DNA of 62,662 nt from Burkholderiaceae bacterium (GTDB taxonomy: Bacteria; Pseudomonadota; Gammaproteobacteria; Burkholderiales; Burkholderiaceae_B), in assembly GCA_044376975.1 (NCBI GenBank), contig JBILJY010000001.1, positions 1 through 62,662 of the forward strand, read 5' to 3'. Below, piece by piece: positions 42,490-61,133 of this stretch. Under the pieces are notes generated by a model. The model made no database searches and had not been told where the DNA came from. It saw nothing but the letters and a program-made list of their open reading frames with translations. The first letter of the stretch is position 1, and the number at the start of each line of letters is the position of its first letter. The translations under genes were made by a program, and so were the position numbers.

Positions 42490-43269
42490 ATGCTTGAACT
42501 TGTACACAACGCCCCAAGTTTTATCAATCCTCCGAGCACGTCAACAACCAACAGTGGCTTAGTGGTCGGCCTCGCTCAAACCACTCAAGAACTAGACCTC
42601 ATCCAACGATTACGTTACGACACTTTTAAAAGCGAGTATGGCGCTGAATTCAACCCCAATACTCCCGGATTAGACAGCGATGCATTTGATCGCTGGTGCG
42701 AGCACTTGATGGTAAGAGATCTGGAAACAGATGAAGTCGTCGGAACCTACCGCGTGCTCACTCCACAAAATGCGTCACGGGCCGGTGGTTACTATTCCGA
42801 ATCCGAATTTGATCTCTCTGGCCTAGGTGATCTCCGCCTCGAGCTTGTCGAGTTTGGACGAGCTTGCATACACGAATCCTACAGGCAAGGCGGAGCGCTC
42901 ATGATGCTATGGTCCGGCTTAGCTGAAATTTTAAAGAGAGGGAATCATCAATATGTGTTTGGTTGCGCGAGTGTGAGCTTGCGCGATGACGGCGTAACAG
43001 CTGCAAAAGTCTGGCGTGATGTACGTCAAGCAGTCCTACAACCCGACGCTCTGCGCGTCACGCCGCACAACCGCTACCCCGTTGAACGTCTCGACAGCTC
43101 CCTTCCTGCCAAAGCGCCAGCCTTGCTGGCCGGCTACCAAAGGTTAGGTGCGCAGATCTGTGGCCAGCCAGCCTGGGATCCAGATTTCAATACAGCAGAC
43201 TTTCCTATGCTCTTATCTATCGCCAACATGGGCGCCAGGTACCGGCGTCATTTTGGCTTCGAAAAATAA
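42490..43269 (+). CDS. olsB: OlsB-like N-acyl amino acid synthase (ornithine-lipid N-acyltransferase)
   Basis: QRLRY..F, D.D.FD..C.HL, VGTYR, YSESEF, E.GR.C, GCAS, L.GY.RLGA..CG.PA.DPDF. Confidence 0.8.
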   Translation: MLELVHNAPSFINPPSTSTTNSGLVVGLAQTTQELDLIQRLRYDTFKSEYGAEFNPNTPGLDSDAFDRWCEHLMVRDLETDEVVGTYRVLTPQNASRAGGYYSESEFDLSGLGDLRLELVEFGRACIHESYRQGGALMMLWSGLAEILKRGNHQYVFGCASVSLRDDGVTAAKVWRDVRQAVLQPDALRVTPHNRYPVERLDSSLPAKAPALLAGYQRLGAQICGQPAWDPDFNTADFPMLLSIANMGARYRRHFGFEK

Positions 43270-43285: not shown

Positions 43286-44587
43286 TCACAAAGACCGCCC
43301 GTGCCCTGAGTCGCCAATCTGTTGATGCAGATTAGGGTTCTGGTTGTGATTCAAATTATTCCATCGAATAATTAGCGCCATAAGTGCTGCAACCATTACG
43401 CCGAATGCGACGATGATGACGTTAATCGGTATCGCTAACCAGAGCATGACTGTATAAAGAGACACCATCGCCAGAATGTTAAGTTGCTCGTTAAAATTCT
43501 GGACAGCAATTGAGTGCCCCGCCGACAGCAATACGTGCCCTCGATGCTGCAATAACGCGTTCATCGGCACTACAAAGTAACCAGATAGTCCGCCAATCAA
43601 CAGCAATAAGGAATACACAGACCAGGTCGACTGCACAAGAGGCATCGCCAGTACGACTAACCCCATGCAAACACCAACCGGAAGCACCGAGAGAGCTCGC
43701 TGAATAGTGACCTTGGAGGCTGCAATCGCACCGAATATAGTGCCAAGTGCTGCAACACCCATCAAAATGCTCGCTTGATCTAGGCGGTAGTTAAGCTGAA
43801 CCCGTCCCCATTCAATCACCACGAGTTGCAATGTCGCGCCGGCTCCCCAAAATAGCGTTGTGACCGCCAACGATATCTGCCCGAGCTTGTCACGCCACAA
43901 CACCGATACGTACCTAAAAAAAACACGGTTTAAGGTAATAAGGTTGTTTGACTGCCGAGGATAGCGCACGCCCGTATCGGGAATGCGAAAATTCAACCAC
44001 GCAGCGATTGCATAGAGAAAAGCGATCACAACAATTGCGGCCTCTGCTGGCGTTGTGGCAAGCGCCCCAATGGCTGGCTGTAAAAGGAGCCAGGAAGCAA
44101 CTGTGGGCGATATCAATAGACCACCTAATACGGCTCCAAGAATGATGGAGAGGACCGTCATTCCTTCTATCCAACTGTTACCTTTGACAAGGTCTTCCGG
44201 CGCAAGCATCTCAGTAATAATGCCGTACTTCGCCGGCGAGTATGCCGCTGCACCGACCCCGACAATTGCAAAAGCGGCACAGACTAAAGCGATCTGACCC
44301 TCGCCACTTAAGTTGAATGCACTATGAAAATACATCAGGACACAACCACACACTTTGAGCGAGTTTGTCCACAACATGACTCGTCCCTTGGGATAGGTGT
44401 CTGCAAATGCACCGACGTAGGCGGCCAAAACAACATAGCCGACAGCGACCCACCACTTCATAATAGATGCCATCCAGTCTGGGCCTGAAAGCTGTTGGAT
44501 AAGTGCAATCGCGGCAATGAAAAGCGCATTATCCGCAAGGGCAGAAAACGTCTGCGCTCCGATCACGTAATAAAAGCCGCGGGTCAT
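43286..44587 (-). CDS. lplT: Lysophospholipid transporter LplT (MFS)
   Basis: SALADNAL, GAFAD..PKG.VM, AYSPAKYGI.TE, TTLFWG.G, VPMNALLQ.RG, SIAVQN. Confidence 0.9.
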   Translation of the reverse strand: MTRGFYYVIGAQTFSALADNALFIAAIALIQQLSGPDWMASIMKWWVAVGYVVLAAYVGAFADTYPKGRVMLWTNSLKVCGCVLMYFHSAFNLSGEGQIALVCAAFAIVGVGAAAYSPAKYGIITEMLAPEDLVKGNSWIEGMTVLSIILGAVLGGLLISPTVASWLLLQPAIGALATTPAEAAIVVIAFLYAIAAWLNFRIPDTGVRYPRQSNNLITLNRVFFRYVSVLWRDKLGQISLAVTTLFWGAGATLQLVVIEWGRVQLNYRLDQASILMGVAALGTIFGAIAASKVTIQRALSVLPVGVCMGLVVLAMPLVQSTWSVYSLLLLIGGLSGYFVVPMNALLQHRGHVLLSAGHSIAVQNFNEQLNILAMVSLYTVMLWLAIPINVIIVAFGVMVAALMALIIRWNNLNHNQNPNLHQQIGDSGHGRSL

Positions 44588-45519
44588 CCGTGCACTCCCT
44601 TGGAGGAGCTTGTATCGTTGTGGTGAGACACATCATCTCGAGGCATGCGCATTAACGGCTGCCCCATGCGTAAACGTACACCAGTCGCAATCCCAGGGCT
44701 TAGCGAGAAACCCCTTGGCGCAAACACGATAATCGTTGAGCCGTGCTCAAACCAGCCGAGCTCCTCTCCCTTCTCGAACCTATGCTCACACAGCATTGTC
44801 GTCTCGCCCTGATAGCTCGCACCGAAGATCGCATCGAGCGCATGCAAACGAATACTCGCCACCAGAATCGCCGCGACGGGAACGAGTGCGACGGCATACC
44901 CCCCGGCTCCGACGTTCATAGAAAGCATGGCTCGCTCATTTTTACAAAAGAGCTTCTCTACACGTTTAAGTGCGATCGGATTAACGTTCCAGGTGTCCCC
45001 TGACATATACAACACTTTGCGCAACACGCCATCGTACGGCGCATGAAAGCGGTGATACATGGCAGAGGTCAATCTCAAGGTCACATAGCATCCGTCCTGC
45101 CACGCACTAACGTCTTCCGATCGACCAAGGAGCTCTTCTATCGCGTAAGGAAATCCCTTCGCTTGAAAGACCTGACCATCAACCACTTGACCGCATTCCC
45201 CGACAATCGCATCACAGGGACTGACAAATACCTCAGGGTTACTGTCAATCACTCGGGCACCTTCTCGAAGCTCTCTGGTAAAGCATTCATGAAGGCTATC
45301 GAACTGTTGCTTTTTTGCATCGGACAAATCCAAGTCGGTAAACACCCGCCAGACCGAGATCGACAGCCTCGAGACCCACCGATTGCGTAGCTTGCTGAAC
45401 CAGCCCATAAAGTGAGTGACTGCTTTACGCGGAATGCGGTTTGTCAGAAGAAAGTTGATATCCTCGTTCAAGACAATGTTTCTAACTTGTTTACTAAAAG
45501 TCATCATTTGGTCATCCAA
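44584..45519 (-). CDS. psd: Phosphatidylserine decarboxylase family (pyruvoyl proenzyme)
   Basis: FTR.L, SPCD, FQAKG, YHRFHAP, NER, F.HGST cleavage motif; start uncertain (45519/45507/45504); ATGA overlap with lplT. Confidence 0.88.
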   Translation of the reverse strand: MDDQMMTFSKQVRNIVLNEDINFLLTNRIPRKAVTHFMGWFSKLRNRWVSRLSISVWRVFTDLDLSDAKKQQFDSLHECFTRELREGARVIDSNPEVFVSPCDAIVGECGQVVDGQVFQAKGFPYAIEELLGRSEDVSAWQDGCYVTLRLTSAMYHRFHAPYDGVLRKVLYMSGDTWNVNPIALKRVEKLFCKNERAMLSMNVGAGGYAVALVPVAAILVASIRLHALDAIFGASYQGETTMLCEHRFEKGEELGWFEHGSTIIVFAPRGFSLSPGIATGVRLRMGQPLMRMPRDDVSHHNDTSSSKGVHG

Positions 45520-45526
45520 TTTTCAT
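45498..45526 (+). promoter_or_regulatory. PHO-box-like 11-bp repeat array upstream of the aminotransferase, overlapping the psd start
   Basis: AAGTCAT-CATT-TGGTCAT-CCAA-TTTTCAT. Confidence 0.55.
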
Positions 45527-45553
45527 AAAAAGGAGCTTTTACGGTGAGGCTCC

Positions 45554-47233
45554 ATGAACGAACATCCCTTAGATACATTACAAATTGCGCAGTACGTTGC
45601 CGTACTCCTCGCGATCTGGGTGATCGCCAACAAAGTTTGGCAACGACTTCAACTGTCTCTTGCTAAATCTCCCTCTCTTGGAGGGCATCTGCGATGGGCG
45701 AAGCGAATCACTAGCCTTATTCCCGGCTACTCCTACGACCGAAACAAATGGCTCGCCTGCGATGACGCGCCACCCGAAGTCGCAGCGCGTCGCTCGGCTG
45801 CGCTGATGGAGCTCAGCAACAACCTCAAAAACCATTCGCCTCATACGCTCGCGCACACCAGACAAGTCAAGCCGATGATCTCGGACCTTCAGTTGATCAG
45901 CCAGTACCGCGTTCCGTTTCAGTTTCGATCTTTTCTCCAAGAGCATGTCGCATTGGGTAGCTTTTGGAGCGAGAGTCAAGGCGTGCATCTGACTGATCTT
46001 GACGGCAACACCTTCATCGACGTCACTGGATCCTATGGTGTCAACCTTTTCGGTCAAGATTTTTACAAGTCGTGCATCGAAGAGGGTATTGCAATGGTGA
46101 GGGACCTGGGGCCCGTGCTGGGCTCGTATCATCCGTGCGTACTCGACAACGTAGAGCGTCTGTGCAAAATAGCCGATAAGGACGAAGTATCCTTTCACAT
46201 GTCTGGAACCGAAGCCGTCATGCAGGCCGTGCGCGTCGCCCGCTACAGCACCGGAAAAAACAAACTGGTGCGCTTTACGTCTGCGTACCACGGTTGGTGG
46301 GATGATGTTCAACCCGGACCTGGCAACCCGATGCCACCCTCGCCCCACACCCTGACACTTCGAGAGATGCATGCCAACACCTTGCGAGTACTGCGCAACA
46401 GAAAGGATATCGCCTGCGTGCTGGTGAATCCGATCCAGGCGATGCATCCGAATCAGAGTGCACCCACTGATTCGACTTTGCTGAGTGGTAGCCGCCGCGC
46501 CCACTTTGACCGAGTCGCCTATACAACATGGCTTCACGAGTTGCGAAGCGTATGCACCGCGCGTGGAATTGTGCTGATTCTGGACGAGGTGTTTCTTGGC
46601 TTTAGGCTTGCACACGGAGGTGCGCAAGAGTACTTCGATATAAAAGCAGACCTTGTGACCTACGGTAAGACGCTGGGAGGGGGCCTTCCGATTGGCGTCG
46701 TGTGTGGTTCGCATGCACTGATGAAGCGATACAAAGAGGCGAAACCTGCAGACCTTTGTTTTGCTCGAGGCACATTCAACGCAAACCCCTACGTGATGGG
46801 AGCGATGAATGCTTTTCTCCATCGCATCGAAACCGAGCCCGTGCGTAAGTTGTATGAACGTTTGGATGACACATGGAGCGCGAGGGCGATCCAACTCAAC
46901 ACGCAACTTTCTGAAGCGAATCTGCCCGTTCGGGTCGAAGCGATGTCTACTGTGTGGACCGTTCTCTATGGCTGCCCGAGTCGATATAACTGGATGCTCC
47001 AGTTTTACCTCAGACAAGAAGGCATTGCATTGAGCTGGGTCGGCACAGGAAGAATGATTTTTAGTTTGAACTTTAGCGATGCTGATTTTGACTCTTTCGC
47101 CACGCGCTTTGTACGGGCTGCTCAGAAAATGCATAAAGACGCTTGGTGGTGGACGCCAGATGGTCAAACAAATCAAACCATCCAGCGTCAACTATTGAGG
47201 GAACTGATTACACACAGATTCTCACCGAACTAA
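45554..47233 (+). CDS. Class-III PLP aminotransferase (GSA-aminomutase-like) with N-terminal membrane anchor
   Basis: DLDGN, SGTEA, YHGW, DEV..GFR, YGKTLGGG.PIG, GTFNANP; N-terminal extension of about 120 aa with a hydrophobic helix. Confidence 0.85.
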   Translation: MNEHPLDTLQIAQYVAVLLAIWVIANKVWQRLQLSLAKSPSLGGHLRWAKRITSLIPGYSYDRNKWLACDDAPPEVAARRSAALMELSNNLKNHSPHTLAHTRQVKPMISDLQLISQYRVPFQFRSFLQEHVALGSFWSESQGVHLTDLDGNTFIDVTGSYGVNLFGQDFYKSCIEEGIAMVRDLGPVLGSYHPCVLDNVERLCKIADKDEVSFHMSGTEAVMQAVRVARYSTGKNKLVRFTSAYHGWWDDVQPGPGNPMPPSPHTLTLREMHANTLRVLRNRKDIACVLVNPIQAMHPNQSAPTDSTLLSGSRRAHFDRVAYTTWLHELRSVCTARGIVLILDEVFLGFRLAHGGAQEYFDIKADLVTYGKTLGGGLPIGVVCGSHALMKRYKEAKPADLCFARGTFNANPYVMGAMNAFLHRIETEPVRKLYERLDDTWSARAIQLNTQLSEANLPVRVEAMSTVWTVLYGCPSRYNWMLQFYLRQEGIALSWVGTGRMIFSLNFSDADFDSFATRFVRAAQKMHKDAWWWTPDGQTNQTIQRQLLRELITHRFSPN

Positions 47234-47237
47234 TGAG

Positions 47238-47849
47238 TTACTTAGATTGCTGTATGTGGGGCATCGGGTCAATCAGTTCGCCACGCAAAAGATATATCGG
47301 CGAGCGGTAATACAGCTTGATGTCATGGAACGGGTCCGTAATGATCTTGATTGCCCAGGCGAAAGCGGCTTGGGCACTATCAATGATGCACAACTGTCCC
47401 ACACGAAATAGTAGACCGGCCAGTCCGAGCATCAGCCAAGACATACCGACAAGCCGCAAAAATGTATCTTCATAAGCCTCGGGCACCATCCAAGTCACAT
47501 ACTGCGGTGCAACGTACGCGACGACCGGAATCAGCGCCCAAATAGCAAGCAACACAATCTTGCGGTGCAAGTTGTAACCAACCTTAATCTCTTCCTTATG
47601 CTCATGCGTCGCTTGGTTTACATGGTCGTAACCCTTGGGTTCAAAGAAGAAGTGCCCAGACTGTCGTGTCGTCATCGCGATCAGCCATGCAACAAAGGAG
47701 GCAGCGACCGGATTGATAAACAACAGCACATAGGAGACCAGAAACGAAATCGCACTAATAAAGTGAAGACTTTGATTGATGCGACTGTGATGGTAGTAGC
47801 GATGATCATCCCATCTCTGTACGCTTAACGTTTTCAGAAGCTCTTTCAT
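47238..47849 (-). CDS. Membrane protein, Mpo1/DUF962-like His-motif protein
   Basis: YYHH..INQ.LH and RQ.GHFFFE motifs; about 5 hydrophobic segments; AAGGA RBS before MKELL. Confidence 0.65.
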   Translation of the reverse strand: MKELLKTLSVQRWDDHRYYHHSRINQSLHFISAISFLVSYVLLFINPVAASFVAWLIAMTTRQSGHFFFEPKGYDHVNQATHEHKEEIKVGYNLHRKIVLLAIWALIPVVAYVAPQYVTWMVPEAYEDTFLRLVGMSWLMLGLAGLLFRVGQLCIIDSAQAAFAWAIKIITDPFHDIKLYYRSPIYLLRGELIDPMPHIQQSK

Positions 47850-47918
47850 CTTTGATCCTTTGTTCAAAATTGTTTGATCCGAGTCATTGATCTAATGAGC
47901 GGATTATTTCAGATGAAG

Positions 47919-47947
47919 GTAACGGAATGATGAATATTGTGTGACAG
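47919..47947 (-). promoter_or_regulatory. PHO box (3 half-sites) of the Mpo1-like gene
   Basis: CTGTCAC-ACAA-TATTCAT-CATT-CCGTTAC, then 10 nt, then AATAAT. Confidence 0.7.
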
Positions 47948-47981: not shown

Positions 47982-48015
47982 TTGTCATCGAATCGTTATA
48001 TTGAATCAGTACAGT
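47982..48015 (+). promoter_or_regulatory. PHO box and -10 of GT4-plcP
   Basis: TTGTCAT-CGAA-TCGTTAT, then 10 nt, then TACAGT. Confidence 0.7.
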
Positions 48016-48043
48016 GCGTACATCCTGTCTAAATAGGTCGGCA

Positions 48044-49240
48044 ATGAAAGAGCCGCTATCGATAGAAGTAGAGCGCATTGTTCCAGACAAGCCCAGCCTA
48101 CGAATGGCTGTGGTGACAGAGACGTACCCTCCAGATATCAACGGGGTTGCACACACTATTTCGATTGTCGTGACGGGACTACGTGAGCGCGGGCATGAGA
48201 TCACGCTCATTCGTCCACGTCGCCACGAAGAGCCCGTACATAGCGCGATGCCCGATGAACTGCTCGTGCGGGGCGCCCCAATCCCGATGTACAAGCAGCT
48301 CAGAATGGGTCTCCCCGCCTTAGGCAGCTTACGTAAACTCTGGACGACGAACCGTCCTGATCTTGTACATATCGCAACGCAAGGGCCACTCGGATGGTCC
48401 GCCGCTCGCGCGGCACACAAGCTTGGTATCCCTGTCAGTTCGGATTTCAGAACAAATTTTCACGCTTACAGCCAGCTTTATGGATTGGGCTGGCTAAAGA
48501 GCACCATCGTGTCCTATCTGCGAAAATTCCATAACGCTGCCCGTTGCACAATGGTACCCACGCAACGCTTGAAGGACGAGTTAGTCATTGGTGGTTTTGA
48601 ACGACTCATTGTGGTGCCACGAGGCGTCGACACAGAAAAGTTTTCGCCTGATCACCGAAATAACAAGTTACGCGCAACATGGGGCGCCAGCCCCAAAACG
48701 ACCGTTTTACTCTCAGTTGGTCGCCTTGCGGTTGAGAAGAATCTTAGCCTTGTAATCAACACCTATACCCGCCTCATACACGAAGGCGCTGAGGCAAAAC
48801 TAGTCTTCGTGGGCGATGGTCCAGAAGCAAGCGCACTGCAACGACTATGCCCAGATGCAATCTTCGCGGGCACGCGACGTGACCAGGAACTAGCGGAGCA
48901 CTATGCGAGCGCTGATTTGTTTGTGTTTCCGAGCTTGACGGAGACCTTCGGTAACGTCACGCTCGAAGCAATGGCTAGCGGTCTTTGCGTGGTGGCCTAC
49001 GATCATGCCGCAGCCGGCCAACTCATCGTCTCAGACAAGAATGGAATCCTTCTACCACCCAATGACGAGGAGGGATTTATCGCTGCGACCCAAGCGATCA
49101 CAGACGATGCGACCCATCGTGAGCAGATGCGTTTACAAGCGAGACAGACGGCGCTGAACAACAGCTGGAACATTATCCTGTCTCGCACCGAGGAAATTTT
49201 TCGATCATTAGTAGCGCTCAACAACTCCAAACAATCCTAG
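48044..49240 (+). CDS. GT4 glycosyltransferase (Agt-like glycolipid synthase)
   Basis: TETYPP.INGVA, HIAT.GPLG, RGVD, VGRLA.EKN, ETFGNV.LEAMASG. Confidence 0.85.
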   Translation: MKEPLSIEVERIVPDKPSLRMAVVTETYPPDINGVAHTISIVVTGLRERGHEITLIRPRRHEEPVHSAMPDELLVRGAPIPMYKQLRMGLPALGSLRKLWTTNRPDLVHIATQGPLGWSAARAAHKLGIPVSSDFRTNFHAYSQLYGLGWLKSTIVSYLRKFHNAARCTMVPTQRLKDELVIGGFERLIVVPRGVDTEKFSPDHRNNKLRATWGASPKTTVLLSVGRLAVEKNLSLVINTYTRLIHEGAEAKLVFVGDGPEASALQRLCPDAIFAGTRRDQELAEHYASADLFVFPSLTETFGNVTLEAMASGLCVVAYDHAAAGQLIVSDKNGILLPPNDEEGFIAATQAITDDATHREQMRLQARQTALNNSWNIILSRTEEIFRSLVALNNSKQS

Positions 49241-49262
49241 TCGTTTCAGGAAACCGATTCCT

Positions 49263-50084
49263 ATGGCCCCTCCCGAATACTTCATCCCAGAGCAGCGCCC
49301 TGAGAAATATCGCGCGATATGGATCTCGGATATTCATCTTGGTACGCCCGGCTGCAAGGCGGAGTATCTCTTAGATTTCTTAAGATGGAATGAATCGGAA
49401 CAACTTTACTTAGTCGGTGACATTATTGACGGTTGGCAGTTAAAAAAAGGGTGGTACTGGCGTCAAAGCCACAACGATGTTGTACAAAAAATACTCCGCA
49501 AGTCTAGGAAAGGAACGCGTGTTACCTACATCGCTGGGAATCATGACGAGGTGCTTCGTCAGTTCCTTGGGATGGCCTTTGGTGATATCGAGATTCTGGA
49601 TGAAGCAACGCACGAACTGTTAGATGGACGTCGCCTCTGGATCACACACGGAGACCTCTTTGACGGGATCATCCAGCACGCTAAATGGTTGGCTTATTTA
49701 GGAGACTCTCTCTACTCCTTCATTCTTAGGCTAAACAATTCTTTTAACCATGCGCGTCACAAGCTTGGGCTTTCTTACTGGTCACTATCCCAATACCTTA
49801 AGCATAAAGTCAAGAACGCAGTCTCGTTTATTACAGAGTTCGAGACAGTCTTAACGGACGAAGCCAGACGACGCGGCTACGACGGGGTGCTTTGCGGGCA
49901 TATCCATCGGCCCGAGATACGCGAAATAAATGGAATCCTATATTGCAATGACGGGGATTGGGTTGAGAGCCTCTCGGCCATAGTAGAGACCTACACCGGC
50001 GAACTAAGAGTCATTCATTGGCCCTATCGCGGCGCAGCGCAAGAGTCGGAATCGCCCGATCCAATCGTTGCTGTTCAGCGATGA
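49263..50084 (+). CDS. plcP: PlcP-type phospholipase C (LpxH-like metallophosphoesterase)
   Basis: SDIHLG, GDIIDGW, GNHD, HGD.FD, WSLS, CGHIH, NDGDWVES; adjacent GT4 and PHO box. Confidence 0.8.
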   Translation: MAPPEYFIPEQRPEKYRAIWISDIHLGTPGCKAEYLLDFLRWNESEQLYLVGDIIDGWQLKKGWYWRQSHNDVVQKILRKSRKGTRVTYIAGNHDEVLRQFLGMAFGDIEILDEATHELLDGRRLWITHGDLFDGIIQHAKWLAYLGDSLYSFILRLNNSFNHARHKLGLSYWSLSQYLKHKVKNAVSFITEFETVLTDEARRRGYDGVLCGHIHRPEIREINGILYCNDGDWVESLSAIVETYTGELRVIHWPYRGAAQESESPDPIVAVQR

Positions 50085-50142: not shown

Positions 50143-51033
50143 ATGAATCCATCCGGCATAACGCGATCACTGTCTGCAAGCCCAATGATTGTTGCAGAGA
50201 ATGTTTCTAAAACATTTCCTGCACTCGCGCACGGGCAGCAAAGTCACTTCAAAGCTCTCGATAGGATTTCATTCTCGATTGCTGCGGGGGAATGCGTCGC
50301 GCTTCTGGGCGCATCTGGCTCCGGAAAATCTACGCTGATTCGAATGATGTGCGGCTTAGCCCGAATGGATTCGGGTAGCGGTCACATTGCAATCGGCTCA
50401 AAGCTTGCGCTTCAAGGCGATCGATTTAGTGACGAGATCGCTCAAACGCGCAAGATAACTGGAGTGATTTTCCAGCAGTTCAATCTTGTCGGTCAACTCG
50501 ACGTGTTAACCAACGTATTGGTTGGTTGCCTACACACAAAAACCACCTTGGATGTGTTGTTCCGTCGATTTACAGAAGCTGAACGTGTCAAGGCGCTTGA
50601 ATGTCTCGACATGGTGGGACTAGGTCCACAAGCCTATCAGCGCGCCTCAACACTCTCGGGCGGACAGCAACAGCGAGTCGCCGTAGCCAGAGCACTGCTC
50701 AAGGGGGCGAAAGTCCTTTTAGCGGATGAGCCCGTCGCATCACTTGATCCAGAGTCGGCACGAAAAGTCATGGATGTACTTTTTGGACTGACAAAAGAAC
50801 TGGGTATGACGCTTGTGGTGAGTTTGCATCAAATTTCAATTGCTCGAACCTACTGCCAAAGAGCCCTCGGGATGAGTCGTGGACGACTTGTGTATGACGG
50901 ACCCATTACAGATCTCACGGAACAACGCCTGAATCAGCTGTACGGGGCTGATGCTCAAGAACTTTTGATGAGCGAGCCCTCAGCTGAACAGCATATCAAC
51001 GAAATTACAAGCAATTCCCTTGTCAACGCTTAA
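50143..51033 (+). CDS. phnC: Phosphonate ABC transporter ATPase
   Basis: GASGSGKST, FQQFNLV, LSGGQQQR, ADEPVASLDP, SLHQ. Confidence 0.93.
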   Translation: MNPSGITRSLSASPMIVAENVSKTFPALAHGQQSHFKALDRISFSIAAGECVALLGASGSGKSTLIRMMCGLARMDSGSGHIAIGSKLALQGDRFSDEIAQTRKITGVIFQQFNLVGQLDVLTNVLVGCLHTKTTLDVLFRRFTEAERVKALECLDMVGLGPQAYQRASTLSGGQQQRVAVARALLKGAKVLLADEPVASLDPESARKVMDVLFGLTKELGMTLVVSLHQISIARTYCQRALGMSRGRLVYDGPITDLTEQRLNQLYGADAQELLMSEPSAEQHINEITSNSLVNA

Positions 51034-51054
51034 ATTATTTAACTGGAGAATTAC

Positions 51055-52002
51055 ATGAAGCTTAAACACTTGGTGCTGGGCGCTTGCCTAGCCGTCAGCA
51101 GTGCAATTGCCTTCGCGCAAGAGGTGTCATTCGGCATTATCGCAACAGACTCAGCCTCTGCACAACGCGAAAAATGGGAACCATTCTTCAAAGATATGGA
51201 GAAGAAGACCGGCCTGAAGATCAAGTCCTTCTACGCAACAGACTACGCCGGCGTGATTGAAGCGATGCGCTTCAATAAGGTCCAAGTTGCTTGGTACGGC
51301 AATAAAGCTGCAATGGAAGCGGTAGATCGTGCAAATGGTGAAATCTTCGCGCAGTTGATGTACGCCGACGGAAGCTTTGGTTACGAGGCACTTTTAATTA
51401 CACACAAAGACTCGCCCTACAAAACCCTAGACGATGTGTTTAAGAATCCGAAGGCTGTGAATTTTGGTATCGGTGATCCAAACTCGACATCAGGCTTCTT
51501 AGTGCCGACCTACTACGTGTTTGCAGCTCGCAAAGTCGATCCACGTGCCATCTTTAAAACTGTCCGTAACGGCAGCCATGGCAACAACATTCAAGCGGTC
51601 CTTGCCAAGCAACTCGACGTTGCTACAAACAACACAGAAGATATGGGTCGCTTACAGGCTACCCGTCCTGACTTGTACAATCAGCTGCGTATCATCTGGA
51701 AAAGCCCTTTGATTCCTAGCGATCCGTTTGTATGGCGCAAAGATCTGGATCCCGCCATCAAGGAAAAGATTCGTACGTTCGTTTTGAACTATGCCAAGAC
51801 AGACGAAGCGGAAAAACTGATCTTGAAGAACATCTATAACTATGGTGGCTTCCGCGCTTCAACAAACGACCAGCTCAAGCCAATTCGCCAACTCGAACTG
51901 TTCAAAGATCGTGTGAAATTTGAAACGGCACAGGGTCTCAGTGACGCCGAGCGTGCAGCAAAGCTTGCTGAAATTGATCAGGCGCTCGCAAAGCTTAACT
52001 AA
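51055..52002 (+). CDS. phnD: Phosphonate ABC substrate-binding protein
   Basis: [41 protein letters not shown]. Confidence 0.93.
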
Positions 52003-52814
52003 TGGCCTCGACATACCAAATGGACGCGCTCGAACGTATTCGAGCGCACGCTCAGTCTAGTCGCCGTGGCCCAATGTATTATGCCGGCTGGGTCATTGCA
52101 ATCGTTGTTGCAGGCTGGGCGTGGCAGGGGGCAGAAATTCGCCCCCTGGATTTGGTAAAGCATTCGGGAAACATCGTCACGCTTGGACGTGACTTTTTCC
52201 CGCCGAATTTCATGGATTGGCGCATCTATATCAAAGAGATGATTGTGACAATCCACATTGCACTGTGGGGGACGCTTTTAGCGATTGCTGCATCTATCCC
52301 GCTTGGATTTTTGTGCGCCTCCAACGTCGTCAGCCCTGTTATCTATCAACCGACCCGCAGACTGATGGATGCGTTGCGAGCTGTCAATGAGATGGTGTTT
52401 GCCCTCCTCTTTATCGTGGCGGTTGGGCTAGGTCCCTTTGCAGGCGTCCTTGCACTTTTTGTCCACACGACTGGCACGCTCACCAAGCTGTTTTCTGAAG
52501 CGGTTGAAGCCATTGATCCACGACCTGTTGAAGGAATCCGGGCCGCAGGAGGCTCTCGCTTAGCAGAGATCGTATTTGGCATCGTTCCCCAGGTCTTGCC
52601 AATGTGGATTTCCTTCTGTCTTTATCGCTTCGAGTCCAATGTGCGTTCAGCCTCGGTGGTCGGTATGGTTGGTGCAGGCGGCATTGGCGTCATTCTGTAT
52701 GAAGTTATTCGAAGTTTTCAATACGCGCAAACTTGTGCTGTCTTATTGATTCTGATCGCCTCGGTCACTGTTATCGATGTCATCTCGGCGTATCTTCGCA
52801 AACAGGTCACTTGA
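52002..52814 (+). CDS. phnE: Phosphonate ABC permease
   Basis: [37 protein letters not shown]. Confidence 0.93.
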
Positions 52815-53899
52815 TGCTAACCAAACCAGAGATCATCATCTCCACTGGGGCACGACATAAGTTGCCTCAACTCGTAAAGCAACATCCTGTCGTTGCGTTG
52901 ATTTATCATCACGCTTCTGAGACGCTAGTCGATGAGCTACAAACTCTTCTTGGACCAAACCTCTTGAAGGTTATCCGTTGTCCCGACGGACTGCCGACCG
53001 TCGAGCTTGCGGATAGCCTGAGACGAGATTTTTGGGACATACACACTAGACGCGACTTACCGATCATCGTTGCAATCGGCGGAGGCAGTACACTCGATCT
53101 GGCCAAATCACTTCGGCTGAATATACCCCACCCAGCCTCTATCACCTCGGTTCTAGATCGCAAAATCGAAGTCGGTGAATTCGAAAGCTGCTCGATGATC
53201 CTGATGCCAACTACGGCAGGCACGGGCAGTGAGGTCTCCTCAACCGCCACCATATGGGATATCGAGAACAGAACCAAGCACTCTCTTTTTGGTCCTGCCG
53301 TCGTGGCCGACTGGGCAGTCATTGACCCAGAACTTGCCTTGACCTCACCCTGGCTAGTGACGCGAGACAGCGGCATTGATGCTCTATCTCATGCACTTGA
53401 AACGATTTGGAATCGTAACCGTGTACCAAAGGCATTCGCCTACGCGATGTCTGCGGCGCAACAGATCGTAAAAGTATTGCCGCAGATTATGGAAAACCCC
53501 GAGGATCTTTCGTATCGCTTCGATATGGCTAGCGCAGCACTCTGGGCAGGTCAGGCGATGGCGCTAACTGAAACCGCCCTCGTTCACGCGCTTTCGTACG
53601 ATGATACGACTGGGCTCGGGTTGTCGCACGGACAAGCATGCGGCCGCTGGTTGCCCAAGGTCTACCAACTAGCCAGTCAGAGCTCCGAAGAGATGGAGAT
53701 CTTCTTACGCGCGGCAATGCAACCTATGATTTCTGATGAGTACCAATTAGCGGCTTGGGTCAATGCTCTTGGCTGCCCGACCGTCTCTCTCGATGATCAC
53801 AGCATCGAAACCGAACGCCGCATTGCCTGCGCTTTACACACAAAGCGTGGTCGTAACTTCATTGAATTATCCCCACAACATGCACTCCAAAAAGTATGA
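52814..53899 (+). CDS. Iron-containing alcohol dehydrogenase, phosphonoacetaldehyde reductase-like
   Basis: GGGS.LD, PTTAGTGSE, DALSHALE, HALSY, HG.AC; TGATG coupling to phnE. Confidence 0.82.
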   Translation: MLTKPEIIISTGARHKLPQLVKQHPVVALIYHHASETLVDELQTLLGPNLLKVIRCPDGLPTVELADSLRRDFWDIHTRRDLPIIVAIGGGSTLDLAKSLRLNIPHPASITSVLDRKIEVGEFESCSMILMPTTAGTGSEVSSTATIWDIENRTKHSLFGPAVVADWAVIDPELALTSPWLVTRDSGIDALSHALETIWNRNRVPKAFAYAMSAAQQIVKVLPQIMENPEDLSYRFDMASAALWAGQAMALTETALVHALSYDDTTGLGLSHGQACGRWLPKVYQLASQSSEEMEIFLRAAMQPMISDEYQLAAWVNALGCPTVSLDDHSIETERRIACALHTKRGRNFIELSPQHALQKV

Positions 53900-55010
53900 T
53901 CTGGTCGTTGTTGGCGCAGGAATCGTCGGTCTGGCGCACGCTTGGATGGCCGCCAAGTCCGGCCTAAGCGTTGTGGTCCTGGACAAGGATCCGCGCTGTG
54001 TAGGCGCCTCCATCCGAAACTTTGGCTTCATCACAGTGACAGGTCAACGAGACGGCGACACTTGGCGTCGCGCAAGACGCTCGCGCGATTTATGGCAAGA
54101 ACTTTCACGCGCGGCAGCGATCCCGATTTGCCATCACGGGCTTACCCTTGTGGCGCAACGGCCAGAGGCCTTAGCCGTGCTAGAAGCCTTCAAAGACACA
54201 CAAATGGGCGAAGAGTGTTCGTTGCTCACACAAGACATGTTGGCAAAAACATGCGGCGCTGTGCGCACCGAGTCCTGTGTAGGGGGCATGTACAGCCCAC
54301 ACGAACTTCGCGTCGAGTCACGCGATGCCATTCCCCAAATTGCCGCTTGGCTTGCGAAAACGCACAATGTTGAGTTTTTGTATAACTGCGAAGTCCTAGA
54401 TTTTGCATTGCCGCACATTCAAACGTCGTCAGGCACTCTCCAGGCCCAACGCATCGCCCTCTGTCCGGGCACTGAAGTCAATGGCGTTGCAAAACGCTAT
54501 CTTCAAGACTATCAACTAACCTTAACGCAGTTACAAATGCTCCGAGTCAAGCCTCCGGCAAACTTCAAGCTTAGCTCCGCTGTCATGAGCGACTTGAGCT
54601 TTGTGCGTTATGCCGGGTACACAGGGCTTGACTGTCATCAGGAATTATTGCAGCGACTTGAGAAAGAGACACCTGATTCACTGGCAGCGGGTATCCATCT
54701 GATCGTCGTTCAAAGCGAAGACGGCAGCCTTGTCGTAGGCGACTCACATCATCCTGCCAACCTATTCGAACCCTATGCAATCGAATCGGTGGATGACTTA
54801 ATTTTGAAGCACCTTGAAGAAGCGCTCTTACTCACCAACTACGACGTCACGCATCGCTGGACCGGTCGCTATCCTGTTGGAGCCGGCGATCAAGATGCGC
54901 TAATCCTGGCACCACACGCTGATGTCCGCGTCGTAAGTGTCACAAGTGGGACCGGCGCTAGCACTTCCTTTGCACTGGCCGAAGAAGTTATGCAATCCTG
55001 GGGAATCTAA
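53880..55010 (+). CDS. TIGR03364-type FAD-dependent oxidoreductase (DAO family, phosphonate-associated)
   Basis: VGAGIVGLAHA, GASIRNFG, E.RVE.R.A, GIHLIV.Q..DG.LV.GDSH, W.G.Y. Confidence 0.85.
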   Translation: MHSKKYDLVVVGAGIVGLAHAWMAAKSGLSVVVLDKDPRCVGASIRNFGFITVTGQRDGDTWRRARRSRDLWQELSRAAAIPICHHGLTLVAQRPEALAVLEAFKDTQMGEECSLLTQDMLAKTCGAVRTESCVGGMYSPHELRVESRDAIPQIAAWLAKTHNVEFLYNCEVLDFALPHIQTSSGTLQAQRIALCPGTEVNGVAKRYLQDYQLTLTQLQMLRVKPPANFKLSSAVMSDLSFVRYAGYTGLDCHQELLQRLEKETPDSLAAGIHLIVVQSEDGSLVVGDSHHPANLFEPYAIESVDDLILKHLEEALLLTNYDVTHRWTGRYPVGAGDQDALILAPHADVRVVSVTSGTGASTSFALAEEVMQSWGI

Positions 55011-55017
55011 CGTGCTG

Positions 55018-55830
55018 ATGTTTGACGAGGGCAGTAACTCAATTCGAGCAGTCGTATTTGACTGGGCAGGCACCATCTTTGACTTTGGTAGTCACGCACC
55101 GATGGGTGCTTTTGTTAAATTATTTGAGCAGGAAGGCATTCGCATCTCGATTGATGACGCCCGCGGTCCGATGGGTATGCCAAAGTGGGATCATATTCAC
55201 ACCCTTGGCCAACTGGAGCATATTCAGGCGCAATGGCTAGCTAAATTCGGGCGTCTGTTTTCTGAACGCGACACTGACCGCTTGTACGATATTTTTACAC
55301 CCATGAACGCCGCATCGGTCGTAGAACATGCAGCGCTCATTCCGGGCTTCTTGGAACTAGCTTCTGACTTGCGTGCAACAGGGATCAAAATCGGCACGAC
55401 GACTGGCTACAACCGCCAGATTATGAACGTGGTGCTTCCTCTCGTGAAAGCCCAAGGCTTTGTTCCCGATAATCTAGTTTGCGCCGATGATCTCCCGACG
55501 TCGCGCCCAACTCCGATGGGGATGTACAAGTGCTTTTTAGATCTTGATGTGTGGCCAAGCAGGTCGGTTGTGAAAGTAGATGACACGGTACCTGGCCTGC
55601 TTGAGGGTTATCACAGTGACTGCTGGACAGTGGGCGTCATTGCAAGCGGCAATGAAGCCGGTCTCACCCATTCTCAATGGAAGAGTCTCTCAGAGGCTGA
55701 AAAGGTAACCTTAAGGGAGCGCGTGGCGAAACGCCTAGCAGCTGGGCATCCAGATTTCCTGATCGATACCGTGGCTGACTTACCCCAGACCTTGCAGAAA
55801 ATTCAACAACTGCTGAATCAGAGAAAATGA
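55018..55830 (+). CDS. phnX: Phosphonoacetaldehyde hydrolase
   Basis: FDWAGT..DFGS.AP, MG.PKWDHI (Schiff-base Lys), TTGY, RP.P, KVDDT. Confidence 0.93.
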   Translation: MFDEGSNSIRAVVFDWAGTIFDFGSHAPMGAFVKLFEQEGIRISIDDARGPMGMPKWDHIHTLGQLEHIQAQWLAKFGRLFSERDTDRLYDIFTPMNAASVVEHAALIPGFLELASDLRATGIKIGTTTGYNRQIMNVVLPLVKAQGFVPDNLVCADDLPTSRPTPMGMYKCFLDLDVWPSRSVVKVDDTVPGLLEGYHSDCWTVGVIASGNEAGLTHSQWKSLSEAEKVTLRERVAKRLAAGHPDFLIDTVADLPQTLQKIQQLLNQRK

Positions 55831-56396
55831 AGATTCACTCCATTGAAGATATCGAGCAATTATTTCTTGATGCAGGTCACGTTGCTTACGCTGGCGAGGG
55901 AATCAATCAACTCGAACACGCGCTGCAGTGCGGTCAACTCGCAGAGCAAGCAGGCGCTAGCGCCTCGCTGATTACGGCAGCCTTCCTACATGACATCGGA
56001 CACATGCTTAACCCCAAAGGCGATACACCTTCGGCACGAGGCATCGATGATCAACATCAGTTCATCGCGAGCCATCAGCTAAAGTCGCTATTCCAACAGG
56101 ATGTTGTTGCTCCCGTGCACCTTCACGTGCTGGGTAAACGTGCCCTCTGTGCAATCGAAGTCGAGTACTACGGCTCACTATCCCCAGACTCCAAGCGCAG
56201 CATGGCTCTTCAGGGCGGCCCTCTGAGCGCCCGTGAGCTCGAGAAATTTTTAGCTATGCCTTATGCTGAAGATGCCATGGCACTGAGGCGCTGGGATGAT
56301 CTTGCCAAAACACCTAATCGTCAAACTCCCGCCCTAGATCACTTCTTACAGATCGCAAGATCTGTTTGCGTTACGCCATCTGGCTTGAATCAATAA
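55827..56396 (+). CDS. phnZ: PhnZ-like HD-domain diiron oxygenase
   Basis: Y.GE.I.QLEHALQ, LHDIGH, H, LHV, LS.DS..S..LQGG, LR.WDD.AK. Confidence 0.78.
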   Translation: MKIHSIEDIEQLFLDAGHVAYAGEGINQLEHALQCGQLAEQAGASASLITAAFLHDIGHMLNPKGDTPSARGIDDQHQFIASHQLKSLFQQDVVAPVHLHVLGKRALCAIEVEYYGSLSPDSKRSMALQGGPLSARELEKFLAMPYAEDAMALRRWDDLAKTPNRQTPALDHFLQIARSVCVTPSGLNQ

Positions 56397-57501
56397 TTTT
56401 TTCAAGCGCAGTCACTACCTCAAACACTGCTCGATTCTGCACACGGCCCACCGCTTCTTGAAACACCGGCAGCTTAGCTAAGAGCTCTTGGGTCGCACCC
56501 TTTATCTCACGCACTTGCGAGACCACGATCCCAAACTGATTCTCACGTATCCAGGTTGCGTTATAACGCTCTTGAGGCATGGTTAAAGCGTTTCTGAAGG
56601 TCAAGACTGGCAAACCCATGTGAACGGCCTCGCTCAAGCTACCTGGACCAGGCTTACCGATCAGGAAGTCGCTCAGGCGCATGACCTGAGCCATATCGCT
56701 TGTAAAACCTAATACGACATGTTTGACCGAAGGCGTCAGTGCTTCTATTTTTTTCGCTAAGAGAGCATTGTGGCCGCAAACCAAAATGAGTTGTGTCTCC
56801 GAAAGATCTTTCGCGATACGCAACATCTGAATCGAGCCATTGCCACCGAACATCACCAGACCGATCGGCTTCGTCGAATCCAGACCAAGCCGTGCGCACT
56901 CTTGAGCGCGATCCAACTTAGCGGTTTGATAAAAACCCGGGCGCAAAATCATGCCCGAGGTTTGGGTGAGCTGATGACTTTGGTATCCAGCCGCCCTAGC
57001 CTGCGTCATTGCGCGGGCTGATCCGCAAATTAAATGTTGCTCTTGCCCTGCCTCTATCCAGAAATGGGGAGGATGATCAGCAATATCTGTCATCACGGTC
57101 ACATAGGGCACGGTCGGACACTCTTGATAAAGAGCATCCCACATCACTTTATTGAAATTCGGCACTAGCGACACCACCATATCGGGCCGTGTCGCTCTCC
57201 AGTGCTGCTGTAACTTTCGCTTCAGCTTTGCGTGACTCAAGCGAATAAGCGCCTGCAAAACCTTGAGTTCTGTTGCCAAGCCAAGCGTCCAGCCCTTCTT
57301 CAGTCTCAAGTTGTAGAGGTCTTCCGGTGCAAAGCCCGTTAGTTTTTGAAAATAACGTTCTGTGTCAATCACCTCAAAGAGATTGACAAGACTGACCTCC
57401 CAATCAGAATGCTCGGTCGCAATGACTTCTTCAAGTGCAAGTGCAGCGGCACGATGGCCGCCACCCGCATTGAAGTAAATAAGTTGGATTTTTTTTTGCA
57501 T
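56371..57501 (-). CDS. GT28 MGDG-synthase-like diacylglycerol glycosyltransferase
   Basis: GGGHRAAA, VMTD, FGG.G, VCG.N, KPGPGS..EA, QE.YN. Confidence 0.85.
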   Translation of the reverse strand: MQKKIQLIYFNAGGGHRAAALALEEVIATEHSDWEVSLVNLFEVIDTERYFQKLTGFAPEDLYNLRLKKGWTLGLATELKVLQALIRLSHAKLKRKLQQHWRATRPDMVVSLVPNFNKVMWDALYQECPTVPYVTVMTDIADHPPHFWIEAGQEQHLICGSARAMTQARAAGYQSHQLTQTSGMILRPGFYQTAKLDRAQECARLGLDSTKPIGLVMFGGNGSIQMLRIAKDLSETQLILVCGHNALLAKKIEALTPSVKHVVLGFTSDMAQVMRLSDFLIGKPGPGSLSEAVHMGLPVLTFRNALTMPQERYNATWIRENQFGIVVSQVREIKGATQELLAKLPVFQEAVGRVQNRAVFEVVTALEKIIDSSQMA

Positions 57502-57525: not shown

Positions 57526-57543
57526 ATGTCAAACGTATGACAA
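57526..57543 (-). promoter_or_regulatory. PHO box of the GT28 gene
   Basis: TTGTCAT-ACGT-TTGACAT, then 10 nt, then CATGCT. Confidence 0.72.
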
Positions 57544-59999: not shown

Positions 60000-61133
60000 A
60001 TGCACACAACAACAATTCGATTCGCTGGCCTTTCTAAATTTGTCTGCGCAGCTGCATTGATAACAAGTTTTCAGGTTAGCGGCCAAACGCAAAGCACTGC
60101 AACGACACCGGCAACCAGCGGTCTCTTGACAGCCGCACAATACGACGATGTCGCGACGCTGCTCATCGGAAAAACACCAGCAAGTGGCTTGCCCGCCTCT
60201 GTTAGCCAAAGCCAAAAATGGGCCACGTACACGCAGACCGTTGAAACGAACTGGGCGGAGTACACAGAAAAAATTGGCACCCCGATGGTGGAGTGGGCAA
60301 AAACCGAAGTTCCCGCGGTGAGTGAAACCGTGTTCTACCCTTTTTCGGGGCCGGACTTCACGACAGCCTACCGCATCTACCCGAATGCAAAGCGATACAT
60401 CATGATCGCCATGCAAAATGCAGAAAGACCGCTCAACCTCGGCTCGACCAATACGCAATTGACGGATCAAGCGCTGGATATTCTTATTTCGGCGTGGCAA
60501 CTTTATGGAACCCACGGCTTCTTCGTTACCGAGTATCTTGAGCGGTACTACTATGCAACCCAAGGACGCGTAGGCTCTAGTACATTCATTACAATTTTCA
60601 TGAAGTTGCAAGGGTTTGAACTTGATCGGATCGTTCCTATCAAGGTGAACTCAGAAGGCGATGTCGAGGAGATTCCCGCTGAAACACGGAATTGGCCCTC
60701 TGTTCGAATTTACGCAACAAAAGCGGGCAAGCCCATCGTGGTGGACTACCTGAAGATGGATTTATCCAACCCTGGGTTGCAAGCCTCGCCAGAGAATTTG
60801 AAGTTCGTTCAATTAGCGTCTGCGAATCCCACGCTATTTAAAGCGGCCTCACACCTTCCGCAAAATGCGAATTTCAATATGATTGCCAGAGAAATTTTGA
60901 CGAAGGCACCGCTCGTCGTACAGGATGAAACCGCCCTGAACTACTCGGCGCTGATTAAGTCATTTGATGTAGCGCTGTACGGTAAGTTTGTGATTGCCCA
61001 CCACGCCTTCCAAAGCTACCACACAGATTTAGCGCTTGCGTTTACTCAACGGTCTGACATCAAACCACTGAACTACCGCTTTGGCTATTACAAAGATGGA
61101 AACTACGTGGTGCTGATCGCGCGTCGTAAGTAA
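60000..61133 (+). CDS. Exported hypothetical protein (YPFSGPD motif)
   Basis: 377-aa ORF with signal-like N-terminus; YPFSGPDF, DLSN, KAASHL, VQDET, FGY motifs. Confidence 0.75.
   Translation: MHTTTIRFAGLSKFVCAAALITSFQVSGQTQSTATTPATSGLLTAAQYDDVATLLIGKTPASGLPASVSQSQKWATYTQTVETNWAEYTEKIGTPMVEWAKTEVPAVSETVFYPFSGPDFTTAYRIYPNAKRYIMIAMQNAERPLNLGSTNTQLTDQALDILISAWQLYGTHGFFVTEYLERYYYATQGRVGSSTFITIFMKLQGFELDRIVPIKVNSEGDVEEIPAETRNWPSVRIYATKAGKPIVVDYLKMDLSNPGLQASPENLKFVQLASANPTLFKAASHLPQNANFNMIAREILTKAPLVVQDETALNYSALIKSFDVALYGKFVIAHHAFQSYHTDLALAFTQRSDIKPLNYRFGYYKDGNYVVLIARRK

Follow-up and report, generated by a model that had tools for sequence, protein, structure and literature searches.

A Pho-linked bacterial gene module uniting a class III aminotransferase, an Mpo1-like protein and a second phosphatidylserine decarboxylase: a candidate for phosphorus-free aminolipid synthesis

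Lipid remodelling under phosphate starvation by the PlcP–Agt system, in which the phospholipase C PlcP frees diacylglycerol (DAG) and an Agt-type family 4 glycosyltransferase (GT4) turns it into a glycolipid, has been described in SAR11, Phaeobacter, Agrobacterium, Pseudomonas aeruginosa (Agt1/Agt2) and Methylosinus (PMC4796936, PMC8528852, PMC9239053, PMC3972451); in the available parts of these sources, the route ends at monoglycosyldiacylglycerol (MGDG) or glucuronosyldiacylglycerol (GADG), without the three genes described here. Other nitrogen-containing, phosphorus-free (P-free) lipids are formed under phosphorus limitation by BtaA/BtaB (diacylglyceryltrimethylhomoserine, DGTS) and OlsB/OlsA (ornithine lipid). 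Diacylglyceryl carboxyhydroxymethylcholine (DGCC), a major planktonic lipid used as a marker of eukaryotes and of phosphorus stress, is a P-free substitute for phosphatidylcholine (PC) in diatoms, haptophytes and dinoflagellates; as far as the available text of PMC10362313 goes, its phosphodiester is replaced by an acetal that links DAG to choline and bears a carboxylate on its central carbon. How DGCC is made has been called conspicuously unknown, and the available parts of PMC5835749, PMC10362313, PMC10685587 and PMC5516115 know neither a pathway nor a gene. Here, we examined a window of 62,662 nucleotides (contig JBILJY010000001.1 of the 2.63-Mb, 95.6% complete genome GCA_044376975.1 of a Burkholderiaceae bacterium, nearest at the gene level to the named species Zwartia hollandica, at 94%), in which three adjacent genes encode a second phosphatidylserine decarboxylase (psd2), a membrane-anchored class III aminotransferase (AT3) and an Mpo1-like membrane protein (mpo).

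The Pho island of the window runs in the order phoR-phoB-phoU, phoX, an olsB-like gene, lplT, psd2, AT3, mpo, GT4, a plcP-like gene, phnCDE, phosphonate enzymes and a glycosyltransferase of family 28 (GT28; Table 1). The trio lies between olsB and GT4-plcP, as the initial annotation had it, and psd2 overlaps lplT by 4 bases. With the PlcP–Agt system the locus shares a plcP-like gene side by side with a GT4 gene (48014-50084) behind Pho boxes, near phoBR, phoX and olsB and, in its relatives, often near ugd, and by this layout it is a candidate member. BtaA/BtaB and OlsB/OlsA, whose genes sometimes neighbour the module, likewise yield nitrogenous P-free lipids, but they use S-adenosylmethionine or transfer from acyl carrier protein, without a pyridoxal-phosphate (PLP) transaminase, a phosphatidylserine decarboxylase (Psd) or an Mpo1-like protein. 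What would be new in this known setting is a lipid route joining a class III transaminase, an Mpo1-like protein and a Psd. We found no description of it in the open-access literature, subscription journals lying outside the search, and the genomic evidence below points to a real, undescribed and widespread Pho-linked lipid head-group module.

Table 1. Features of the Pho island discussed in the text (window coordinates)
Feature	Position	Strand	Evidence
Pho-box-like triplet	42382	-	genome rank 2
OlsB-like N-acyltransferase	42490-43269	+	PF13444; OlsB models below cut-off (140 of 350)
LplT lysophospholipid transporter, accessory	43286-44587	-	NF008397, 535 bits (cut-off 297)
psd2, second, specialised phosphatidylserine decarboxylase paralogue, core	44584-45519, likely start 45507	-	PF02666 (PS_Dcarbxylase), 188 bits
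Pho-box-like triplet before AT3	45498-45526	+	score reached by 0/500 shuffles; genome rank 3
AT3, membrane-anchored class III PLP aminotransferase, 559 aa, core	45554-47233	+	PF00202, 118.8 bits
Mpo1-like (DUF962) helical membrane protein, core	47238-47867, likely start 47849	-	PF06127, 21.6 bits, below cut-off
Pho-box-like triplet facing the Mpo1-like gene	47947-47919	-	score reached by 2/500 shuffles; genome rank 7
GT4 glycosyltransferase, putative Agt-type	48014-49240	+	GT4 Pfams; lipid-GT4 NCBIfam models under cut-off
PlcP-like phospholipase C	49263-50084	+	metallophosphoesterase Pfams; PlcP name from context, no dedicated model match
GT28/MGDG-synthase-like glycosyltransferase	56371-57501	-	own Pho-box-like array at 57543
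Pho-box-like triplet	57543	-	genome rank 15

The three genes are real and form an inherited unit. Around the 80 best GTDB loci for AT3 (hereafter split loci), psd was present in 76, mpo in 73, a GT4-family gene in 70, lplT in 48, plcP in 47, olsB in 25 and GT28 in 2, and all misses of psd and mpo lay at or near a contig end. When 401 Burkholderiales genomes, chosen without regard to neighbourhood and including that of the window, were searched gene by gene, AT3 was found in 46, mpo in 47 and psd2 in 45, counts in which related genomes are not independent and the carriers fall in 24 of 169 genera. All 46 AT3 genomes have psd2 (44 by the search, G439 and G602 by a 40–44% identical copy beside AT3) and 45 have mpo, the single miss being at a contig end. 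The extras come from G612 and G448 (a fragment); the G612 locus (L262:5738-8854) is a decayed module, with psd2 and GT4 intact and AT3 and mpo between them shortened by internal deletion. Of the co-occurrence proposed at the outset, the part concerning AT3, mpo and psd2 is borne out, but GT28 cannot be kept as a core gene at 2/80, a lower bound since it sits at the edge of the 10-kb flank.

About one tenth of the sampled Burkholderiales carry the module, which was also recorded in Bradyrhizobium, Methylobacterium, Sphingomonadaceae, Mariprofundus, Binatia and Methylomirabilota; the first three share the arrangement psd2(-) AT3(+) mpo(-). A PmtA-type methyltransferase gene adjoins mpo in 13/13 alphaproteobacterial loci. 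A search for longer forms returned both methyltransferase–Mpo and AT3–Mpo fusions, the latter a large family of proteins 726-769 aa long (120/120 among the matches listed), with names that include Binatia and Methylomirabilota. Around 80 metagenomic loci of the fused gene, a GT4 of the window's type lies directly upstream in 50 and plcP is found in 27, and of the 65 whose downstream DNA reaches far enough, 39 have a PEMT-family gene; no psd was found in these 80 loci (24 with at least 3 kb on both sides), which represent loci rather than whole genomes. Judged by family assignment, other lineages have added phospholipid N-methyltransferases of two unrelated families to the module, and its product therefore likely has a free amine. 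Bradyrhizobium pmtX2 may sit in such a cluster. In the available part of PMC3972451, PmtX2 is of the Rhodobacter sphaeroides PmtA type, and PmtX2-4 are not expressed under standard conditions. In family f43, named Mariprofundus for one cluster, AT3, an 890-aa GT4 fusion, psd2 and mpo lie on one strand in 5/6 loci. This ~890-aa protein (L134:2719-5385, L127:3674-6355) has GT4 at its C-terminus and an N-terminal half that lacks a Pfam match, bears a D-x-H-C-H motif, is presumably PHP-like and may replace PlcP; separately, 5 fused loci have a stand-alone PHP gene upstream of their GT4. A DUF3047 protein is encoded downstream of the fused gene in 11/80 loci (for example, L196:10352-11026).

Public databases label AT3 glutamate-1-semialdehyde aminomutase and psd2 (archae)phosphatidylserine decarboxylase. 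We had initially described AT3 as a HemL-like PLP enzyme with an N-terminal transmembrane helix and a long extension, and this anatomy stands. Hydropathy peaks at 1.75 over residues 6-24, the predicted model (predicted local distance difference test, pLDDT, 87) has a helix at residues 8-37 within a helical extension of ~135 residues, and the Aminotran_3 domain begins at residue 136. The PF00202 match together with K372 (the Schiff-base lysine), D344 and T407 (the PLP-binding aspartate and threonine) and the fold places AT3 in the class III PLP aminotransferase family, and neither these three residues nor R119 or R500 vary across 105 split and 120 fused homologues. On the hemL model TIGR00713, however, AT3 scores 165–167 bits against a cut-off of 527, and its 559 aa with a membrane helix differ from the soluble ~430 aa of HemL, whereas a protein on contig C210 reaches 532.5 bits and is a true HemL; AT3 is, thus, not the sole HemL of its genome, and the first refuting condition named in the initial annotation does not apply. 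As noted before, no heme gene occurs nearby (none among 31 open reading frames, ORFs, scanned from 29.5 to 62.4 kb).

Profile comparison places AT3 nearest, among solved sequences, to the aminotransferase (AMT) domain of the mycosubtilin synthase MycA (PDB 6KFM/6KFU; E 1e-67, against 4e-45 for HemL), which is also the Foldseek rank 1 for the AT3 model; further near solved relatives are β-transaminases, PctV and a C-6' aminotransferase. AT3 shares the class III fold and the PLP lysine motif with both MycA AMT and HemL, and MycA has an Arg at the position of R500. Nevertheless, AT3 is only 27% identical to MycA AMT, is stand-alone or fused to Mpo, carries the membrane helix and ~135-residue helical extension, and has no carrier protein or polyketide synthase near it. 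One residue separates the two AT3 clades: R405 is present in 105/105 psd2-linked copies and in 24 further split rows, and is V or I in 120/120 fused copies. R405 adjoins the threonine that holds the PLP phosphate, and its distribution, a single contrast between two clades, fits an extra substrate carboxylate that Psd2 would later remove. G439 and G602, expected to lack psd2 and considered as a second such contrast, were set aside: both have a divergent psd2 and keep R405.

Psd2 accompanies, rather than replaces, the ordinary enzyme. A separate housekeeping Psd is encoded on contig C112, and psd2 is an extra copy in each of the 24 further genomes that carry AT3 in a phylum-wide sample of 401, all having at least two Psd matches (one second copy being a fragment). 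D103, H156, G260, S261 and T262, i.e. the triad and G-S self-cleavage site of a pyruvoyl Psd, are kept in 97/97 Psd2 sequences (D90, H144 and the G-S site in the numbering used beside E. coli Y137/S166). Psd2 is, however, not an E. coli-type Psd: E. coli Y137 and S166 correspond to R149 and N178 here and to Arg/Asn in 97/97 Psd2 sequences, whereas 30/30 housekeeping controls, the long-type Psds that scored highest in a sample of 151 genomes, have Tyr/Ser there, and E. coli D142 is Met in Psd2. A tree built from 31 other sequences and 25 psd2 rows, roughly one in four of the latter, gives Psd2 a clade of its own with support of 99/97. In the available part of PMC7952604, the side chains of E. 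coli Psd Tyr137 and Ser166 bind the lipid phosphate. We infer that Psd2 would bind a carboxylate where an ordinary Psd binds phosphate, the linker of its substrate probably being something other than phosphate. The bacterial route from phosphatidylserine (PS) through phosphatidylethanolamine (PE) to PC resembles the module in having a Psd with the D-H-S triad and G-S site and, in related clusters, PmtA-type or PEMT-type methyltransferases; it differs in that Psd2 belongs to an additional clade, has Arg/Asn in the positions that bind phosphate, lies under Pho-box-like arrays, and is adjoined not by a PS synthase but by a transaminase and an Mpo1-like protein.

Yeast Mpo1 is a Fe2+ dioxygenase for the α-oxidation of 2-hydroxy fatty acids. 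The window protein shares with it a weak PF06127 match over residues 21-76 that contains invariant His, Asn and Glu; at 21.6 bits (E 2e-4) against a gathering cut-off of 24, this falls outside Pfam membership, and the protein is longer and has an invariant D178/D182 segment of its own. The Mpo1 label is therefore weak, though the earlier description as a membrane protein with a His motif holds: the predicted model is a helical membrane bundle (pLDDT 88.7), and D21, H22, H26, N31, H35, H72, E76, D178 and D182 are common to 94 stand-alone and 120 fused copies. A fold search with this model gave no clear match (best Z 4.0), no PDB sequence match was found, and neighbours in the Atlas either have the family assigned to 16% of their members or bear the name DUF962. 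The invariant His, Asp and Glu residues are compatible with Fe2+- and O2-dependent C–C cleavage, and we predict a metal-dependent oxidase or oxygenase. A predicted complex of AT3 with the Mpo1-like protein scored 0.00, which gives no answer and is not used as evidence.

The Pho-box-like arrays reported before AT3 and mpo were recovered by shuffling and by genome-wide ranking (Table 1), the ranks being among all positions of the genome under hand-set matrix weights on the consensus CTGTCAT-N4-CTGTCAT quoted in the available part of PMC8528852. In homologues, leaving out loci with too little flank or below 45% identity, a score of at least 23 was reached upstream of AT3 at 79/102 loci versus 0/102 in-gene controls (a count inflated by the first AT3 half-site, at 45498, which overlaps the psd2 start codons), upstream of mpo at 43/91 versus 8/91, and upstream of GT4 at 32/56 versus 0. 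The same genome scan found no Pho box upstream of phoU. Taken together, the arrays suggest control of the module by PhoB; contigs of three metatranscriptome runs cover pieces of AT3 and mpo and say nothing on transcription or phosphorus dependence.

Very probably, the module makes a P-free amine lipid, as had been proposed from the start: joint inheritance and gene fusions argue for it, as do the N-methyltransferases gained in other lineages and the altered Psd pocket, although the glycosyltransferase partner would be of the GT4 family (70/80 loci) and not GT28 (2/80). A pyruvoyl decarboxylase requires an α-amino acid, which a transaminase can supply from a keto acid, and methyltransferases complete the amine; this is the logic of PS, PE and PC. 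We therefore favour, at somewhat less than an even chance, a P-free copy of the PS-to-PE-to-PC route that leads from the GT4 glycolipid to a DGCC-type head, here desmethyl-DGCC, DAG-O-CH(COO-)-O-CH2CH2-NH3+. PlcP would free DAG and GT4, as known for PlcP–Agt, would make glucuronosyl-DAG; by analogy, the GT4 of the module may supply its substrate as glucuronosyl- or glucosyl-DAG. The Mpo1-like protein would then, in the weakest step, oxidatively open and shorten the sugar ring, so that C1 stays an acetal, C2 becomes its carboxylate and a keto acid remains on the C5-C4 arm. AT3 would transaminate this keto acid to a serine-type head, Psd2 (in which the residue swap is observed and its meaning conjectural) would decarboxylate it, and a methyltransferase, where there is one (of PmtA type in Alphaproteobacteria and of PEMT type in the fused clade), would convert the amine to DGCC. 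In the corresponding atom map, the ring oxygen would be kept, C5-C4 would become the ethanolamine carbons, C3 would be removed by Psd2 and C6 lost after oxidation at C4. The fused clade, with neither psd2 nearby nor Arg405 in AT3, would aminate an aldehyde already lacking that carboxyl. The carboxylated-acetal linker of DGCC has the shape that the psd2 pocket suggests.

A diatom provides a possible parallel. In the available parts of PMC5516115 and PMC3315573, Thalassiosira pseudonana swaps PC for DGCC and lacks btaA/btaB. In supplement file 3 of PMC3315573, phosphorus limitation raises models 6818 (unannotated; 5.3-fold, false discovery rate, FDR, 2e-8), 6819 (phosphatidylserine decarboxylase; 4.6-fold, FDR 2e-8) and 6820 (PIG-A/sulfolipid-synthase GT4; 325-fold, sixth of ~9,570 rows); among the 32 rows with neighbouring gene identifiers, no others are significantly induced, and 6817, annotated as a phospholipid methyltransferase, adjoins them. 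In the text available, the authors read 6820 as a gene for sulfoquinovosyldiacylglycerol (SQDG). Adjacency is here read from consecutive model numbers, and the genes are matched to ours by annotation, not by sequence. Induction of a Psd at a time when phospholipid synthesis ceases, with a GT4 and a methyltransferase next to it, would mirror the bacterial set. It is, thus, a tentative possibility, and one we would sooner doubt than assume, that the module is the missing DGCC pathway and is shared by diatoms, glucuronosyl-DAG being opened oxidatively at the membrane to give a carboxy-acetal, a mimic of the phosphodiester, and then aminated, decarboxylated and methylated. If so, bacteria from lakes, soils and vents would make DGCC or its unmethylated form, DGCC-type lipids would no longer be algal markers, and sugar-ring cleavage on a lipid would be new chemistry; if only the broader reading holds, the product would still be an undescribed, widespread P-free aminolipid. 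Atlas clusters of the module proteins are 92-100% bacterial; a profile search for eukaryotic homologues gave 833 matches, of which the 150 listed are unnamed and mostly fragments, and word-based searches gave bacterial or unnamed entries among the top matches listed; none of these results is a test of absence from eukaryotes. No module match was found in viral contigs.

Several observations weigh against the DGCC assignment, a pathway read from genes, whereas algal DGCC is an established compound without an established bacterial counterpart. DGCC is reported only from marine eukaryotes in the available part of PMC10685587 and is called unprecedented in bacteria by PMC7242380, although that source includes, as tentative assignments, DGCCs with short and nearly saturated chains from a dark aquifer; phosphorus-starved Erythrobacter NAP1 gained DGTS, MGDG and GADG in the available part of PMC4796936, its gene content not being compared. 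In the diatom, 6817 is not induced (1.06-fold; PMC3315573 supplement file 3), and neither peptides of 6818-6820 nor the AT3 motif were found in proteome file 5 (PMC3315573). No aminotransferase is annotated in the block 6817-6820 either. Model 6817, the peptides of which in supplement file 5 of that study appear fibrillin-like, may combine two genes, and its flat tag count need not be that of the methyltransferase. Biochemically, we know of no precedent for one 200-residue protein performing several oxidations, and the Mpo1-like label of that protein is below the Pfam cut-off; the R405 pattern is one contrast between two clades; and an Arg at position 137 occurs in 15% of the Psd family and can bind phosphate too (PMC7952604, available part). 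In the window's genome, which is 95.6% complete, no true Ugd was found (best 25%); Ugd in 26/105 split loci and in 5/5 congeners speaks for the reading, and these congeners and 32/40 chosen carriers have a Ugd of this type. Finally, GT4 is not beside the trio in G439, G602 and G778; G778 yielded neither a GT4 nor a PlcP match, and in G439 and G602, as in G600, plcP and GT4 are paired at another place in the genome. As for the end product, the window's genome has no Pmt-like gene (best match 33-34%, partial), so that the pathway would stop there at the PE analogue.

Among the alternatives, the sugar ring may stay intact: the Mpo1-like protein would oxidise one ring carbon (e.g. C4) and AT3 would aminate it, as in ArnA/ArnB chemistry but on a lipid, giving an amino-uronosyl or, with C6 lost, an amino-pentosyl DAG that the methyltransferases would then quaternise. 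Such a route needs a single oxidation, suits the fused clade in which psd was not found nearby, and agrees with the nearest solved relatives of AT3, which are β-keto-acyl, β-amino-acid and sugar-type aminotransferases, 4-keto-glucuronate being a β-keto acid. Yet it offers no α-amino acid to a pyruvoyl Psd, although psd2, with intact catalytic residues, is present in 46/46 AT3 genomes, and we consider it unlikely. A P-free amine lipid might also bypass the glycolipid, as a serine or homoserine ether of DAG decarboxylated by Psd2 or as a head like that of diacylglyceryl hydroxymethyltrimethyl-β-alanine (DGTA), with GT4 no more than a co-regulated neighbour; the trio does stand without an adjacent GT4 in 5 alphaproteobacterial loci and in G439, G602, G778 and G600, the neighbouring GT4 genes belong to different subfamilies, and a btaA-like gene lies near some loci. 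We think this quite improbable, given that GT4 is directly upstream of the fused gene in 50/80 loci and is fused to another domain inside the one-strand Mariprofundus-type cluster, that G439, G602 and G600 retain the plcP-GT4 pair, and that a class III transaminase has no obvious means of forming an ether.

Far less credible is the proposal, made as a second option in the initial annotation, that AT3 is a phospho-lyase freeing phosphate from PlcP-released head groups or from PE, in a unit for phosphorus recovery or lipid breakdown. Class III enzymes do include ethanolamine-phosphate phospho-lyase, yeast Mpo1 is catabolic, and the Pho boxes and the neighbours phoX, phnCDE, phnX and phnZ would suit such a role; but it leaves unexplained two independently recruited N-methyltransferases, the methyltransferase–Mpo fusions, the membrane anchor and a second Psd with replaced phosphate contacts, while the nearest structures are transaminases and no phospho-lyase is among the 36 solved sequences matching AT3 at E <= 1e-20, no direct comparison having been made. 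That AT3 and psd2 are ordinary spare copies of HemL and PS decarboxylase without a joint pathway, as their database names would have it, is scarcely believable in view of 167 of 527 bits on the hemL model (against 532.5 for the C210 protein), near-perfect co-occurrence and fusion with the Mpo1-like gene.

Among accessory genes, lplT was considered as part of the pathway and rejected, being present in 48/80 loci in changing orientation, with a paralogue on contig C151 at 65%. The OlsB-like gene represents a separate P-free lipid route. Genes resembling btaA (DUF3419) lie near the module at L034:7704-8957 and in L037, L268, L269 and L213, so DGTS synthesis can coexist with it, and GT28 stands beside psd2 in L116 and near the fused gene in L140. 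In G439, a block resembling arnB-arnC-arnA (L260:13521-17001, read from N-terminal sequence) lies 4 kb from the trio. Within the window, an antisense ORF over AT3 (45578-47191 (-), 537 aa) was set aside as a likely shadow of the conserved gene, similar open frames being present in 95 loci. The region 50143-56396, which serves phosphonate uptake and breakdown, holds phnCDE followed by genes for a PsrA-like iron-containing alcohol dehydrogenase, an HpnW-like flavin-dependent oxidoreductase, the phosphonatase PhnX and a PhnZ-like HD oxygenase, without an obvious PhnW. Further downstream, 60000-61133 (+) encodes a 377-aa protein with a signal-like N-terminus and zero Pfam or NCBIfam matches, which has a paralogue at 35% on contig C217 and occurs near the module in 5/80 loci.

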